DNA of 64,000 bases, from NCBI GenBank assembly GCA_003599335.1, contig QZJN01000001.1, positions 6,167-70,166 on the forward strand. Direction: 5' to 3'. Positions 5,779-53,819 of this stretch are shown piece after piece. How positions within the stretch are numbered: position 1 is the stretch's first letter; every line of letters begins with the position of its first letter. The stretch is from Candidatus Parcubacteria bacterium. GTDB lineage: Bacteria > Patescibacteriota > Minisyncoccia > SURF-38. The notes under the pieces were generated by a model. That model made no database searches. It was not told the DNA's origin and saw only the letters and a program-made list of their open reading frames with translations. The position numbers were made by a program, and so were the translations under genes.

Positions 5779-6563
5779 TCAGAAACGATTTTATACATAA
5801 ATATAAATTTGGTATCGGATTCATTCTTACAATCTTCGTTTTAGGTTTTATTGGATTTTCTTTGGCGAGCGCTCAACAGCCATTGCAAATAAATATTTCT
5901 TTGCCCCAGCAAGAAACCAAAATTCAATCACCGACAATCACCGTTTTTCCTCCATCGTTGAATAACAAAGAAATACTTTATCTTGGCGGCACAACCGAGC
6001 CAGGATATACAGTTTTGGTATTTTTGCAGCGGGGAAAGGAGGCTTTGATAACAGCTCAAGTTCAGGCTGATGAGAGCGGAAGTTGGTTTTATGCCCACAA
6101 AGGATTTTTGGCAGAGGGAAAGTATTCTTTCTGGGTAAGGGCAAGAACCCAGGAGGGAATTTTGAGCGAGCCAACACAATCGGCAGAACTTAATGTTCTT
6201 GGAGAAGCTCTGGAAATAGGTTCTTACAGAATAGGCTTTAAGAGTCTTTATGTTTTTGCGGTAGGAGCCTTGAGTATAATTGTAACGATATTTATCATTG
6301 TTATACTGATTATTCATATAAGGATACAATCCAAAAAACGACGCTTGCAAAAAGAGGTTCTTGAGGTTCATAGTTCCGTAAAGAAGGGTTTTGAGATATT
6401 GAAGGATGATATTCACAAAGAACTTGATGTTTTGAGAGAGCTTGAGAAAAACAAACAACTTTCCCCTGAAGAAAAGGCTCGCCAAGCCAAATTACTCACA
6501 GATCTTGATTTTGCCGCTAGATATATTGAAAAGGAAGTTATTGACGTTGAAAAATTAATCTAA
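5775..6563 (+). CDS. Third related surface protein: signal/TM, Fn3-like domain, TM and a C-terminal coiled-coil.
   Basis: N-terminal hydrophobic segment. Motif SGSWFYAHKGFLAEGKYSFWVRARTQEGILSEP resembles the Fn3-like block of the two upstream genes. Internal TM VFAVGALSIIVTIFIIVILII, then a charged heptad-like tail. Start overlaps the upstream gene by 4 bp (translational coupling). Confidence 0.5.
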   Translation: MIRNDFIHKYKFGIGFILTIFVLGFIGFSLASAQQPLQINISLPQQETKIQSPTITVFPPSLNNKEILYLGGTTEPGYTVLVFLQRGKEALITAQVQADESGSWFYAHKGFLAEGKYSFWVRARTQEGILSEPTQSAELNVLGEALEIGSYRIGFKSLYVFAVGALSIIVTIFIIVILIIHIRIQSKKRRLQKEVLEVHSSVKKGFEILKDDIHKELDVLRELEKNKQLSPEEKARQAKLLTDLDFAARYIEKEVIDVEKLI

Positions 6564-8154: not shown

Positions 8155-9426
8155 ATGGAAGAAGGGAATAATCAAAATCAAAAGATCTTATTGAAAAGAA
8201 GCGTCGTTGGGATTTTGGTTTTAGTTGGAGGCGCTGTTTTAGTCGCAGGATTGGCTACGTATGGCGGTGGTTTTAAAGCCAGCCTGTTGGATTTTTTCTG
8301 GAAAAAGATATCTTCCCCGGCCATAAATATTCCAGAGCCGGTTGTTTCATATCAGTCGGCCTTGGATATTGAACGGGCAGTTATCTCTGTTGTAAAAGGC
8401 AATTCCGATGCGGTTGTGAGTGTTATTCAGACTAAAGATGTTCCAATTTTGGAGCAATGCGTAAGGAGCGAACCTTTTGGCTTTTCTGACGATCCATTTT
8501 TTAGGCAATTTTTTGGAGATATAAGAATTGAAGTTCCTTATATCTGCGAGAAGGGAACTCAGAAGAAAGAAGTCGGCGGCGGAACCGGTTTTGTGATATC
8601 TTCAGACGGTTTGATTGTTACCAACAAACATGTGGTTGTTGATGGTAAATCACAATATACAATTTTAACCAACAGCGGACAGAAATTAGAAGCTAGGGTT
8701 TTGGCTAAAGATCCTTTTCAGGATTTTGCGATTCTAAAAGTTGAAGCCAGTGGTTTGCCAACAGTTATTTTTGGGAATTCAGATAGTATAGAGATAGGAC
8801 AATTTGTCATTGCTATAGGAAATGCTCTTGGCGAGTTTAGAAATACAGTTTCTTTTGGAGTTGTTTCGGGCATAAGAAGGAATATATCGGCTTTTGGACC
8901 TTCTGGCTTTAGGGAGGTTTTAGAAGAGGTTATCCAGACTGATGCTGCTATAAATCCTGGCAATTCCGGTGGGCCGCTTTTAAATTTAAAGGGAGAAGTC
9001 GTTGGCATTAACACAGCGGTTGCTCAAGATGCTCAGAATATTGGATTTACAATACCGATAAACAGAGTTAAAAGGAGTATAGAATCTTTCAAAATTAACG
9101 GGAAAATTGTTTATCCTTATTTGGGAGTTCGTTATGTAACAATTACTCCTCAAATTCAAAAAGAGAGAAATTTGCCCGTTGATAGGGGTGCTTTGCTTGT
9201 TGGTGGAGATGGAGAGCCGGCGGTTGTTAAAGATTCTCCGGCCGAGAAATCTGGTTTTAAGGCCGGTGATATACTACTTGAGGTTAACGGAGAAAGAATA
9301 GTTGAAGAAAATACTTTGAGCAGGCTCTTACAAAAATATCAACCAAAGGAAGTTGTAAGCATCAAGTTTTTGAGGAACAAGGAAGAGAGGTTTTTGGAAG
9401 TTATCTTGGGGGAGCAAGTCAGTTAG
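8155..9426 (+). CDS. htrA: HtrA/DegP-family periplasmic serine protease with a C-terminal PDZ domain.
   Basis: N-terminal TM. Trypsin-fold catalytic-triad context (His in VTNKHVV, Asp in QDFAILKV, Ser in GNSGGPLLN). C-terminal PDZ-like segment with GDILLEVNG. Confidence 0.85.
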   Translation: MEEGNNQNQKILLKRSVVGILVLVGGAVLVAGLATYGGGFKASLLDFFWKKISSPAINIPEPVVSYQSALDIERAVISVVKGNSDAVVSVIQTKDVPILEQCVRSEPFGFSDDPFFRQFFGDIRIEVPYICEKGTQKKEVGGGTGFVISSDGLIVTNKHVVVDGKSQYTILTNSGQKLEARVLAKDPFQDFAILKVEASGLPTVIFGNSDSIEIGQFVIAIGNALGEFRNTVSFGVVSGIRRNISAFGPSGFREVLEEVIQTDAAINPGNSGGPLLNLKGEVVGINTAVAQDAQNIGFTIPINRVKRSIESFKINGKIVYPYLGVRYVTITPQIQKERNLPVDRGALLVGGDGEPAVVKDSPAEKSGFKAGDILLEVNGERIVEENTLSRLLQKYQPKEVVSIKFLRNKEERFLEVILGEQVS

Positions 9427-9740
9427 CCCCCACACCATAACGAGTTTGCGTTGTGTTTTACGTCTATATTCTAAAGAGTCTTAAAGACAAAGATTTGTAC
9501 ATCGGGTTTACTCCAGACTTGCGGAGCAGGTTTAAAAAACACAACGCTGGTTTAGTTCAATCAACCAAATCAAGAAGACCCTCAAGCTTGTGTATATTAT
9601 GAAGCGTATGCCTCAGAAGAAGAAGCAAAACACCGCGAGGATAACCTCAAGCTGCGAGCCAGAGCCCTAAGGCAGCTTCTCAAAAGAACCAAGAAGTCCA
9701 TTAAAAGCTAATGAAAGCTAAAACTCGTTTGGTGTGGGGG
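9427..9740 (+). mobile_element. 314-bp miniature element bounded by ~20-bp terminal inverted repeats and carrying a disrupted GIY-YIG gene.
   Basis: Left arm cccccacaccataacgagttt (9427-9447). Right arm aaactcgtttggtgtggggg (9721-9740) is its reverse complement apart from one base. The element sits exactly between the htrA stop and the clpB regulatory region. Confidence 0.4.
9453..9711 (+). pseudogene. Frameshifted small GIY-YIG nuclease-family gene (UPF0213/YhbQ-like).
   Basis: Frame 0 (GTG start) gives VFYVYILKSLKDKDLYIGFTPDLRSRFKKHNAGLVQSTKSRRPSSLCIL-stop. Frame +1 continues ACVYYEAYASEEEAKHREDNLKLRARALRQLLKRTKKSIKS-stop. Together these match the canonical family pattern YVYIL..KDGxLYIGxTxDLxxRLxEHN..STKxRRPxKLVYYExY. 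Indels near 9580-9597 break the frame. Confidence 0.55.
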
Positions 9741-9767
9741 TTAGCACTCGACCTTTGACATTGCTAA
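9741..9767 (+). promoter_or_regulatory. CIRCE-like (HrcA operator) inverted repeat upstream of clpB.
   Basis: Sequence TTAGCACTC-N9-CATTGCTAA against the consensus TTAGCACTC-N9-GAGTGCTAA. The left arm is perfect and the right arm matches 7/9. It overlaps the predicted -35 box. Confidence 0.4.
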
Positions 9768-9784
9768 TAGATCTCCTATATACT
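9755..9784 (+). promoter_or_regulatory. Sigma70-like promoter for clpB.
   Basis: -35 TTGACA (9755-9760), 18-bp spacer, -10 TATACT (9779-9784), about 30 bp upstream of the clpB ATG. Confidence 0.35.
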
Positions 9785-9809
9785 AAATACCAAATACTAA
9801 ATAGCAAAT
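9777..9809. repeat. Third TAGTATTT-type heptamer array, inverted relative to the two at 2.0 and 3.2 kb. Lies between the clpB promoter and start codon.
   Basis: The reverse complement reads aatttgctatttagtatttggtatttagtatat. It shares the agtatttggta / tatttagtat core with the arrays at 2048-2078 and 3185-3220. Confidence 0.4.
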
Positions 9810-9813
9810 TATC

Positions 9814-12498
9814 GTGATGCAGTTTAATAAATTTACGCTTAAGGCTCAGGAGGCCCTTAGGCATTCTCAGGAGATTGCTTATATGAGGCGCCATCAACAG
9901 ATTGACTCTTTGCATCTTTTGACAGCGCTTTTGAGCGATGATGCCGGTGTCGTGGCTAGCGTTTTAAAAAAGCTTGAAATTGATCCGGAAGAAATAATAA
10001 TGAAGGCCGAAAGATTGCTTGAAAACCACCCAAAAATGTTGGGCGATATTCCTCTTGGTCAGATTTATTTAACTCAAGAGCTTGCTCAAGTTTTGGAGCA
10101 GGCCGTAGTTGAAGCAAATAATATCAAAGATGAATACGTTTCAACGGAGCATTTATTGCTCGCCCTTTTGGGCACGCCCGGAAAAGCAAGAAATCTTCTT
10201 GAATCATTTAAGCTTGATAGAGAGGAGATGCTTCAGGTTTTGAGCGAAGTCAGGGGAGCTTCCAGGGTGACCGATATGGAGCCCGAAGGTAAGTATCAGG
10301 TTTTGGAAAAATACGCGCGCAATCTAACAGAGTTGGCCAGGCAAAAGAAATTAGATCCGGTTATCGGTAGAGAAAACGAAGTTAGAAGAGTAATGCAGGT
10401 TCTTTCCAGAAGAACCAAAAATAACCCGGTTCTTATAGGCGAGCCGGGTACCGGCAAAACCGCCATTGTTGAGGGTTTGGCTCAAAGAATAGTGGCCGGT
10501 GATGTTCCGGAAAGCCTGAAAGACAAAGAGATTGTCGCGCTTGATCTTGGGGCTTTGGTCGCCGGTACAAAATACAGAGGAGAATTTGAAGATAGGTTAA
10601 AAGCCGTCTTGAAAGAAATAGAGCGTCAGGCTGGCAAAATCATTTTGTTTATTGATGAACTACACACGCTTATAGGGGCGGGTGCTGCCGAGGGTGCCAT
10701 AGACGCCGCTAATATGCTCAAACCGGCCTTGGCCAGAGGGGAGTTGCATGCGATTGGTGCAACCACATTGAAAGAGTATCAAAAGCATATTGAAAAGGAC
10801 CCAGCCTTAGAGCGAAGATTTCAGCCTATTTATGTTTCCGAGCCAAATGTTGACGATGCAATAGCTGTTTTGAGAGGCATAAAGGCTAAGTATGAATTGC
10901 ATCACGGAGTAAGGATAAATGATCCTGCAATTATTGCTGCCGTTAATCTTTCTAACAGGTATATAACCGACAGATTTTTGCCAGATAAAGCCATTGATTT
11001 GGTTGATGAAGCCGCGGCGGCTTTAAGGATGGAAATCGACAGTCTGCCTCAGGAGATTGATCAGTTTAAACGAGATTTGATAAAAGCCGAAATTGAAAGA
11101 GAGGCTTTAAAAAAGGAGAAAGACAAGGCTTCAAAAGAAAGATTAAAACAAATCAACAGAAAGATTGCAGACCTCAAAGAGCGCTTTGAGGGACTTGAAC
11201 TTCAATGGCGTCAGGAGAGAGATGTTATAGCTTCTATCAGAGAAACAAAAAAGAACATAGATAGTTTAAAACAAGAAGCGGATATAGCCGAACGAAAAGG
11301 AGATTTACAGAGAGTTGCCGAAATCCGCTACGGAGAGATACCTTTGTTGGATAAAAAAGTTTTGCAATCAAATAAAAAGCTAATTAATCTTCAGAAAAAG
11401 AGGCAATTTTTGACAGAGGAAGTTACGGAAGAACATATCGCTCAAGTCGTCAGCCGATGGACGGGTATTCCTGTAGCCAGAATGCTTGAGGAAGAGGCTG
11501 TGAAGTTGGGCCGGATGGAGGAAGTTTTGAAAAAAAGAGTTGTGGGGCAGGATCATGCCATTGTTGCTATTGCAAACGCTATCAGGCGATCCAGGGCCGG
11601 GTTGTCAGAGGAAAAAAGACCCATCGGTTCATTTATGTTTCTTGGTCCGACCGGGGTCGGTAAAACAGAGCTTGCTAAGGCCCTTGCCGAATTTATGTTT
11701 TCTTCGGAGAGCGCAATTATAAGGGTAGATATGTCGGAGTTTATGGAAAGACATGCTGTTTCGCGCCTGATAGGTTCTCCCCCCGGATACGTGGGCCATG
11801 AAGAGGGTGGGCAGATTTCCGATATGGTTAGGAGGCGTCCTTACAGCGTTGTGTTGTTTGATGAAATCGAAAAAGCTCATCCTGAAGTTTTCAATGTTTT
11901 GTTACAGATATTAGACGAAGGTCATTTAACCGATGCGAAGGGGAGAAAGGTTAACTTCAAAAATACCATTATTATAATGACTTCAAATATCGGTTCAGAG
12001 ATGATCCAAGAGATTGTCCAGCTTGGTTTTTCAACCGCAAAAGACGGCACCCCCAATGCTGAAGCAGCTCGCAAAGAAGAGGTTATAAGAGAAAGAATTA
12101 CGACAGCCCTAAGGGAACGTTTCAAACCCGAATTTCTTAATAGAGTTGATGAAATTGTTATGTTTAGGTCTTTGGTTCCTGAAGATTTGAGTAAAATTGT
12201 TGATTTACAACTTGGCAAAGTTGAAGAGAGGATAAAGGCCAAAAATGTTAGTTTAAAAATTACCCCTGAAGCCAAAAAGTTTTTGGCCGAAAAAGGATAC
12301 GATCCAAATTTTGGCGCAAGGCCCCTATCCCGTATTATTCAACAATTGATATTAGACCCCTTGGCCAAGCAGGTTATTGAAGGCAAGGTAAAAGAGGGAG
12401 AGGTTATAACAATTGATGCGATCGGGGATAATATAAAAATCAGCTCTAAAGGATTGAGGCTTATTGGATCAACGAGAGAGTCTTTGTTAACTAAATAA
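9814..12498 (+). CDS. clpB: ClpB (Hsp104-type) AAA+ disaggregase chaperone.
   Basis: Clp N-domain repeats. Two AAA+ modules with Walker A GEPGTGKT and GPTGVGKT. A long coiled-coil M-domain lies between them. Sensor-2 GARPLSR is present. The 894-aa length is typical. Confidence 0.95.
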
Positions 12499-53575: not shown

Positions 53576-53819
53576 ACTTTCACATTCTGCGTAAAATACT
53601 CGTTTTATTCAAGTTTGCCGAGCGGCCGCCTACGCATTTCCATCAAGTTATGGTATTATTTTTACGACAATTGAATATTCGCCTAAACTCGTCGATTTCT
53701 CGGCGGGCATGGTATCAAGACCGATAAAGCATAAAAAACCCGTCATGGGGTTGCTTTATCGGCCGTATGGGGAAACCTGTACGTCTTGCGCAAGCGAGAG
53801 ACCCGTGGCGGGCTTTTTG

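Follow-up and report, generated by a model that had tools for sequence, protein, structure and literature searches.

A stretch of 64,000 nucleotides (nt) from a Candidatus Parcubacteria genome (contig QZJN01000001.1, positions 6,167 to 70,166), referred to here as the window and always meaning the whole stretch analysed, raises the question of what fills the space between htrA and the clpB operator: a short unit closed by inverted repeats and carrying a broken GIY-YIG nuclease gene. The answer is that this unit is a decayed, dead member of an element family. The family is apparently undescribed and widespread in Patescibacteria, and it forms an architectural and sequence variant of the nuclease-hairpin theme represented by the Ssn nucleases; a literature search found no description of the Patescibacteria element. 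More specifically, the locus is rather likely to be the remnant of a selfish module of about 0.3 kb, in which the gene for an 85-residue GIY-YIG nuclease is enclosed by arms that pair with each other and the enzyme would act in an Ssn-like way. The window copy is inert, and its interest lies in the family and in possible autonomous mobility at a size of 0.3 kb.

The element spans 314 bp (9427-9740), with the GIY-YIG gene (9453-9711) placed between arms of 21 and 20 nt. The arms are complementary at 20/20 positions, the left one having one T more, and a 21-mer match with at most three mismatches has a chance expectation of 0.01 in the window. Folding as single-stranded DNA gives a predicted structure dominated by the long-range stem, which the minimum-energy and centroid solutions have in common (z = -3.8). 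The unit begins with the base that follows the htrA stop codon and ends directly before the operator. A preliminary description had proposed such a mini-element, bounded by inverted repeats, holding a decayed GIY-YIG gene and wedged between the htrA stop and the clpB operator, and all of this anatomy is borne out by the following features:

9423-9426: left flanking TTAG; contains the htrA stop codon TAG (9424-9426), is directly repeated at 9741-9744 and is a candidate target-site duplication.
9427-9447, + strand: left arm CCCCCACACCATAACGAGTTT; its outer 11 nt are the core conserved throughout the family, and T9438 is the extra unpaired base.
9448-9459, + strand: 5' half, GCGTTGTGTTTT, of an inverted repeat inside the element; spans the GTG start codon (9453) and is complementary to the other half at 12/12 positions.
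9453-9581, + strand: GIY-YIG pseudogene segment 1, residues 1-43 (VFYVYILKS...STKSRRP), followed by a 1-nt deletion at 9581/9582.
9536-9547, + strand: 3' half, AAAACACAACGC, of that inverted repeat; encodes K-K-H-N-A, with the His30 codon CAC pairing with the GTG start.
9582-9595, + strand: pseudogene segment 2, (C)TC AAG CTT GTG TAT = LKLVY, readable in the -1 frame only.
9596-9597, + strand: 2-nt insertion AT, the second frameshift.
9598-9711, + strand: pseudogene segment 3, YEAYASEEEAKHREDNLKLRARALRQLLKRTKKSIKS, with the stop codon TAA at 9709-9711.
9712-9720: extra tail of about 10 nt after the stop codon, not present in homologues.
9721-9740, + strand: right arm AAACTCGTTTGGTGTGGGGG.
9741-9744: right flanking TTAG, direct repeat of 9423-9426; the native CIRCE-like operator (CIRCE, controlling inverted repeat of chaperone expression) opens with these 4 nt.
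9741-9767, + strand: outside the element and upstream of clpB, CIRCE-like TTAGCACTC-N9-CATTGCTAA, overlapping a promoter-like TTGACA-18-TATACT at 9755-9784.
8155-9426 and 9814-12498: flanking genes for an HtrA-type protease and for ClpB.

Is the gene truly broken? The reading frame that opens at 9453 stops at 9602, and its conserved continuation needs two frame changes. Once stitched (...SRRP-LKLVY-YEAY..., 85 residues), the product matches the Pfam GIY-YIG domain PF01541 over residues 1-71 at E = 3e-16 and is 64-77% identical to 26 intact homologues of 81-86 residues in a gap-free alignment. Nucleotide alignment to intact relatives places the lesions in the assembled sequence: one nucleotide was lost at 9581/9582, turning CCNCTC into CCCTC, and AT was gained at 9596-9597, while a third lesion is a duplication of about 10 nt 3' of the stop codon. 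Both frameshifts lie in short, slippage-prone repeats (CCC at 9579-9581 and TATAT at 9593-9597), and the preservation of both arms and of the start-codon stem is perfect, which would suit an intact gene in a live element that was misread during sequencing or assembly. This explanation is improbable, as it calls for two independent indels within 16 nt in addition to the 3' duplication, and no other open reading frame among those examined nearby is broken.

The wider family was assembled from a protein search that returned 515 clusters of close homologues, nearly all of 81-86 residues; the few with a source name are almost all Patescibacteria. A scan of one genome per species yielded at least 580 loci, the best 80 of which were examined (L001-L080) and, together with the window, make up the 81 homologue-encoding loci counted here. 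At 68 of the 81, both arms lie directly around the open reading frame. Units are 279-339 bp long and share the layout (TTNA)CCCCCACACCA...TGGTGTGGGGG(TNAA), with CCCCCACACCA as the conserved outer core; the arms of the most compact members take in the start and stop codons. Over 53 distinct arm pairs, the columns of the outer core are invariant or nearly so, and the corresponding proteins diverge to 53% identity. The inner 8-12 nt vary between lineages and always match the partner arm.

The two arms covary across these 53 arm pairs. Pairing holds in 93.9% of cells compared with 76.0% in shuffles, compensatory changes occur at 16/21 pairs, a count that none of 500 shuffles reached, and arms slid out of register pair at 49% or less. 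Neither arm is self-complementary; they pair with each other across about 270 nt. The extra T of the left arm is common to 34 family loci, the window among them. At L053 (2974-3277), the conserved extra T sits in the right arm, so that the arm asymmetry is flipped relative to the gene. Mismatches within the arms are balanced, at 11 GT and 12 AC, and this lack of a G:T excess points to a constraint on both strands of DNA and not to an mRNA stem. Taken together, the free inner arm sequence, the unpaired T and the absence of strand bias fit a DNA stem better than an mRNA stem or two sites bound as duplex. The CACCA of the arm recalls a tRNA, but this reading was dropped because divergent arm types do not have CACCA.

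A second stem lies within the unit. The start-codon region pairs with Lys/Glu-His-Asn codons about 85 nt downstream, at 12/12 positions in the window; other members pair ATG with the CAT of the catalytic histidine, where the window pairs GTG with CAC. The stem reaches at least 12 bp in 33/75 family members, and the codon that follows His-Asn covaries with its non-coding side. The stem probably hides the start codon and so would keep the nuclease scarce, much as a stem occludes the start codon or ribosome-binding site in IS200.

Does the family behave as a discrete unit that moves? Several lines of comparison suggest that it does, at least occasionally. At least 16 family loci contain gene-less hairpins, or copies resembling miniature transposable elements with inverted repeats (MITEs), with the same core arms (CCCCCACAC...) and loops of 4-130 nt. 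Gene-less units lie at L082 (9222-9322), L083 (2802-2868) and L094 (780-842), and also in L015, L019, L025, L033, L042, L046, L048, L049, L055, L064, L068 and L076; L016 holds tandem units. About 20 gene-less arm pairs occur over 836 kb of related loci. In L082, which preserves the syntenic neighbourhood of the window, such a pair lies downstream of clpB, and in L083 one lies upstream of htrA with TTGA on both sides; some of these units in relatives of the window occupy intergenic sites that are empty in the window. Furthermore, two contigs of one metagenome-assembled genome (L021 and L026) share 312 nt at 100% identity within unrelated flanks. The shared stretch consists of ATGAA, the unit and TGAA, with nothing common beyond.

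The site occupied in the window is empty elsewhere. Among 85 related htrA loci (421 kb), none has a GIY-YIG gene, and htrA is adjacent to clpB in 24. Relatives whose HtrA is 56-62% identical keep the order SIMPL-RNaseH-htrA-clpB, htrA and clpB lying only 18, 35 or 186 nt apart, and the junction lacks the element in L082, L084/85, L086 and about 20 more loci. A metagenome scan with HtrA found its nearest relative at 67% identity and none closer, the two closest contigs ending before or at the junction. The CIRCE-like operator is a host sequence and no part of the element, because L084, which lacks the element, natively carries the same variant upstream of clpB (6344-6370). This variant, in both the window and L084, has two mismatches to the canonical second half-site. 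In the simplest history, the unit would have inserted between ...CAGTTAG and CACTC..., where the htrA stop codon originally overlapped the first bases of the operator, and a 4-nt duplication would have preserved both the stop codon and the operator. The nuclease gene would have decayed afterwards while the arms stayed intact, leaving them at most a passive cis site, on which only a paralogue encoded elsewhere in the genome could act.

These results also speak to the two alternatives of the preliminary description. Its miniature mobile element using a GIY-YIG nuclease gains support from the recurrence of the same arms in dozens of genomes, their covariation, the gene-less derivatives, the identical copies and the empty sites. 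Its other proposal, a long stem around a pseudogene, had the anatomy right but needs no separate explanation, since the stem is formed by the element's own ends. The further arm copies and empty sites it suggested looking for were both found in other genomes. Although the arms are unique within the 64 kb, such arms enclose intact homologues in dozens of genomes, and distant relatives share neither the locus nor the frameshifts.

Flanking sequences add a further signature. Direct repeats of at least 4 nt flank 17/55 independent loci, compared with 1.45 expected and a maximum of 6 in 2000 permutations; the 55 leave out duplicate loci and nine related elements with TGAA on both sides. The repeated sequences are diverse, 4 nt is the commonest length (11/55 loci), and the window has TTAG on both sides. 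Insertion sites and genomic contexts differ in nearly every genome, tRNA genes included. At 8/66 loci (L033, L034, L036, L045, L050, L073, L076 and L078), the terminal G-run of the right arm supplies nucleotides 1-3 of a same-strand tRNA gene; the left flank at the tRNA-adjacent loci repeats the first 7-10 nt of the tRNA, and a direct repeat of 4 or 7 nt follows the G-run. At L038, the left arm overlaps the 3' end of tRNA-Phe. The pattern suggests that the element targets the 5' ends of tRNA genes and that the gene is rebuilt on insertion. The 64-kb window itself contains no tRNA gene.

Such observations bear directly on the idea that the gene is an immobile host gene with a long-range RNA stem that closes its mRNA and serves processing, stability or translational control, with the window copy a decayed host gene. 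The arms do enclose exactly the open reading frame, at many loci the inner part of the left arm extends over the start codon or the ribosome-binding region, the start-occluding stem recurs across the family as described, and two homologues sit at fixed loci. Nevertheless, this explanation is very improbable: arm copies occur without the gene, identical copies are set in flanks that have nothing in common, none of the relatives examined has the gene at the orthologous position, contexts are diverse and include tRNA genes, and direct repeats are enriched. An mRNA stem also finds little in the base-pair counts, as the excess of G:U over A:C is nil in the arms and weak in the internal stem (118 versus 86).

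The protein itself narrows the options further. The only open reading frame in the unit is the GIY-YIG domain, with no DDE, HUH, serine or tyrosine transposase. Intact members keep Tyr, Tyr, Arg, His-Asn and Glu invariant, as expected of an active GIY-YIG site, and a C-terminal NLKLRARALRQLL helix is specific to the Patescibacteria element clade. An AlphaFold2 model of P0001, an intact homologue standing in for the repaired window protein, has a predicted local distance difference test score (pLDDT) of 97.3 and shows a GIY-YIG fold with no second domain. Among solved structures, those closest to it are UPF0213 BH0048 and the structure-specific nuclease domain of Slx1 (template-modelling score, TM, 0.63-0.68; root-mean-square deviation 1.2-2.1 A), and the I-TevI catalytic domain is a more distant match. 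An NCBIfam search of the family protein gave nothing above the cut-off, and a PADLOC search for defence systems gave no match.

A GIY-YIG domain at an intergenic position between conserved genes could also mark a free-standing homing endonuclease of the phage Seg/Tev type, cutting alleles that lack it, with the arms incidental. A weak PHROG 'homing endonuclease' match (E = 4.6e-5, covering only the N-terminal 41 residues) leans the same way. Even so, this is hardly credible for a protein of 85 residues: homing GIY-YIG enzymes have two domains, whereas the family protein has no C-terminal DNA-binding domain. The arms are conserved across phyla and covary, the insertion sites are diverse with no one cognate site, and viral contigs gave 0 matches to the gene-sized arm pattern.

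How, then, might so small a protein act? The closest functional guide comes from Ssn, single-domain GIY-YIG proteins of about 94 residues whose genes are flanked by NTS/SRM hairpin repeats (PMC11893778). In vitro, they bind the hairpin repeat and cut single-stranded DNA only, a few nucleotides 5' of the hairpin; the loop is dispensable, and a stem made from two separate oligonucleotides is still cut (PMC11893778). A 2025 description presents them as the first enzymes with site specificity that cut single-stranded DNA only, and its authors speculate that the repeat-gene-repeat layout derives from a mobile element (PMC11893778). That study, which covers 7,051 Ssn sequences, defined homology to Neisseria SsnA by blastp at E < 1e-10 and at least 75% coverage (PMC11893778). 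The Patescibacteria family matches N. gonorrhoeae SsnA in hhalign with a probability of 97.6% (E = 3e-12, 40% identity over 70 columns), and pairwise BLASTP with the family consensus gives E = 5e-15 with 42% identity over 76/91 residues. Against an SRM-flanked Ssn from Azospirillum, the consensus shows 48% identity and 59.7 bits; housekeeping UPF0213 proteins reach nearly the same score, at 49-50 bits.

By analogy with these enzymes, the family's putative activity can be outlined in a few steps. When the region becomes single-stranded, during replication, repair or DNA uptake, the two arms would form a stem. The element's nuclease may then recognise this stem together with the 5' TTNA flank and nick just outside it. 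The stem is nearly symmetrical and carries TTNA on both strands (the right flank being TNAA), so that both strands could present the same substrate. Nicking would define the ends of the unit and might allow it to be excised, copied or inserted again, at times with a short duplication left at its flanks.

A conventional insertion sequence (IS) working on double-stranded DNA offers a competing account. Here the arms would be terminal inverted repeats bound as duplex, and a GIY-YIG transposase would move the unit by cut-and-paste or copying, making staggered cuts and a 4-bp duplication. Inverted ends with a conserved outer core suit this account, as do 4 nt as the commonest length of the direct repeats, the identical sharp-ended copies, the empty sites and the gene-less MITE-like derivatives. 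It is unlikely nonetheless. No prokaryotic IS family is known to use a GIY-YIG transposase, the 85-residue single domain has no separate DNA-binding domain, and the characterised homologues, the Ssn nucleases, leave duplex DNA untouched. In addition, inner arms that vary while remaining complementary fit a stem better than two independent binding sites, the flanking repeats vary in length from 0 to 7 nt, and a conserved unpaired T is typical of hairpin substrates.

Several observations nevertheless weigh against a selfish module with Ssn-like action. The family nuclease is known from its sequence and a predicted structure, and its clade is about equally similar to UPF0213 (49-54 bits) and to Ssn (46-60 bits). 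Co-varying inverted ends would also be expected from a duplex-binding transposase. The arm of the family is half a hairpin, with the two halves about 270 nt apart and the gene as the loop, and the SRM pattern (HGTCWYN(0-2)YYVSBRHN(0-5)WNVSBRGN(0-2)RNCYNB) matches nowhere in the 64 kb of the window or in the family loci (415 kb); as controls, the pattern gives 8 matches within the 3.2 kb that surround N. gonorrhoeae ssnA and 4 within 1.4 kb at the Azospirillum gene. No flanking repeat is present at 26/55 loci, and where repeats occur their lengths range over 4-7 nt. Copy number is low: the 64-kb window holds no solo hairpin and no further copy of an arm (at three or fewer mismatches), the core 11-mer, the element (blastn) or the protein (tblastn). 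Two well-sampled homologues, P0029 and P0068, are each fixed at one locus in many samples; the notion that one identical protein occupies multiple insertion sites was rejected for both.

Two further features of the window lie apart from the element. The clpB leader contains a tandem 14-nt repeat (ATACTAAATACCAA / ATACTAAATAGCAA, 9780-9807), just 3' of the promoter-like -10 element. An Rfam search gave no RNA family match at the element locus; a full-length match to LOOT RNA (RF03000; 87.9 bits, E = 2.6e-15) is found at 53680-53799 on the + strand.

What would these elements mean in a broader context? A bolder interpretation, which we hold tentatively and regard as rather doubtful, is that they are autonomous transposable elements of about 0.3 kb, with a GIY-YIG nuclease as a 'transposase' that cuts the hairpin of its own ends. 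They would then form a new mechanistic class with a preference for tRNA 5' ends, and Ssn would represent domesticated descendants. If so, they would be less than half as large as the smallest insertion sequences known and would be the smallest self-contained mobile elements known in bacteria, and the Ssn nucleases of Neisseria, Wolbachia and others would have arisen from such elements by domestication. The family supplies what the speculation on a mobile origin of Ssn had lacked, namely a minimal unit of gene and hairpin with sharp ends. Should the nuclease act on its own ends, the family would also offer a natural source of nuclease-hairpin pairs for single-stranded-DNA tools. For annotation, the family accounts for hundreds of 'GIY-YIG nuclease family protein' genes in Patescibacteria genomes, and for the conserved CCCCCACACC hairpins that adjoin genes and tRNAs there.

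Known systems share individual traits with the family. The housekeeping GIY-YIG proteins of the UPF0213/YazA type (PDB 1zg2, 1ywl) and the Slx1 nuclease domain have the same fold and size and are the best solved-structure matches, and Slx1 cuts branched and stem-loop DNA. Unlike the family, UPF0213 genes of Listeria and Radiobacillus have no repeats at their flanks, and their place in an operon, between rsmI and a gene for a tRNA methyltransferase, is fixed. MITEs such as the Neisseria Correia elements are likewise short intergenic units with terminal inverted repeats of about 20-26 nt, a short flanking duplication and a presence that varies among relatives. However, MITEs are non-coding and depend on a transposase in trans, whereas the family unit carries its presumed enzyme, with gene-less versions alongside. 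Measured against insertion sequences, the family has terminal inverted repeats, identical copies (L021/L026, not the window's genome) and empty sites, but no transposase of a recognised class.

Closer parallels exist with repetitive extragenic palindromes and bacterial interspersed mosaic elements (REP/BIME) together with their REP-associated tyrosine transposases (RAYT), and with the 'peel and paste' elements IS200/IS605. In each case, a small nuclease gene lies between palindromic repeats on which its product presumably acts, and the repeats are also scattered as gene-less hairpins. These systems recognise single-stranded hairpins and use unpaired bases as strand markers, traits to which the extra T and the stem of the family may be likened. 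A short conserved tetranucleotide adjoins the cleavage point, which for the family is a predicted one. The differences are that the catalytic protein of the family is a GIY-YIG enzyme and not an HUH/Y1 transposase, that one long-range stem stands in place of subterminal hairpins at each end, and that the unit measures about 0.3 kb compared with about 0.7 kb for IS200.

The closest likeness is to the Ssn-repeat pair. Both proteins are single-domain GIY-YIG enzymes shorter than 150 residues (85 in the repaired window protein; about 85-97 across Ssn and the family), both genes are bracketed by inverted, stem-forming repeats that also occur without the gene, and in both the nuclease and its repeat seem to co-evolve. 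The Ssn authors noted the IS-like architecture themselves (PMC11893778). The N. gonorrhoeae ssnA locus used for comparison (L081, NZ_CP119142.1) has 10 dRS3/NTS repeats in 3.2 kb, and its ssnA frame is apparently frameshifted near the start; NZ_CP119142.1 and NZ_CP119140.1 are 2.17-Mb N. gonorrhoeae chromosomes entered as plasmids in PLSDB. On the Azospirillum lipoferum plasmid AZO_p3 (L167, 255506-255799), an Ssn gene 59% identical to N. gonorrhoeae SsnA lies between sufB and sufC with two inverted SRM pairs, an operon-internal, insertion-like position.

The two systems also differ in clear ways. The repeat sequences are unrelated, and the family lacks the SRM motif. Each side of an Ssn gene carries complete hairpins of about 28 nt, often more than one, and Ssn repeats number in the hundreds, whereas the copy number seen for the family is low. 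Patescibacteria are not mentioned in the Ssn study, which offers no evidence of mobility (PMC11893778), whereas the family has identical copies, empty sites and flanking repeats. The family thus resembles the Ssn-repeat pair but departs from it in motif and hairpin layout, and the hhalign and BLASTP scores mark the two nucleases as related. A split, loop-less stem, a substrate that Ssn cuts in vitro, is also the layout that the family element would require of its own enzyme.

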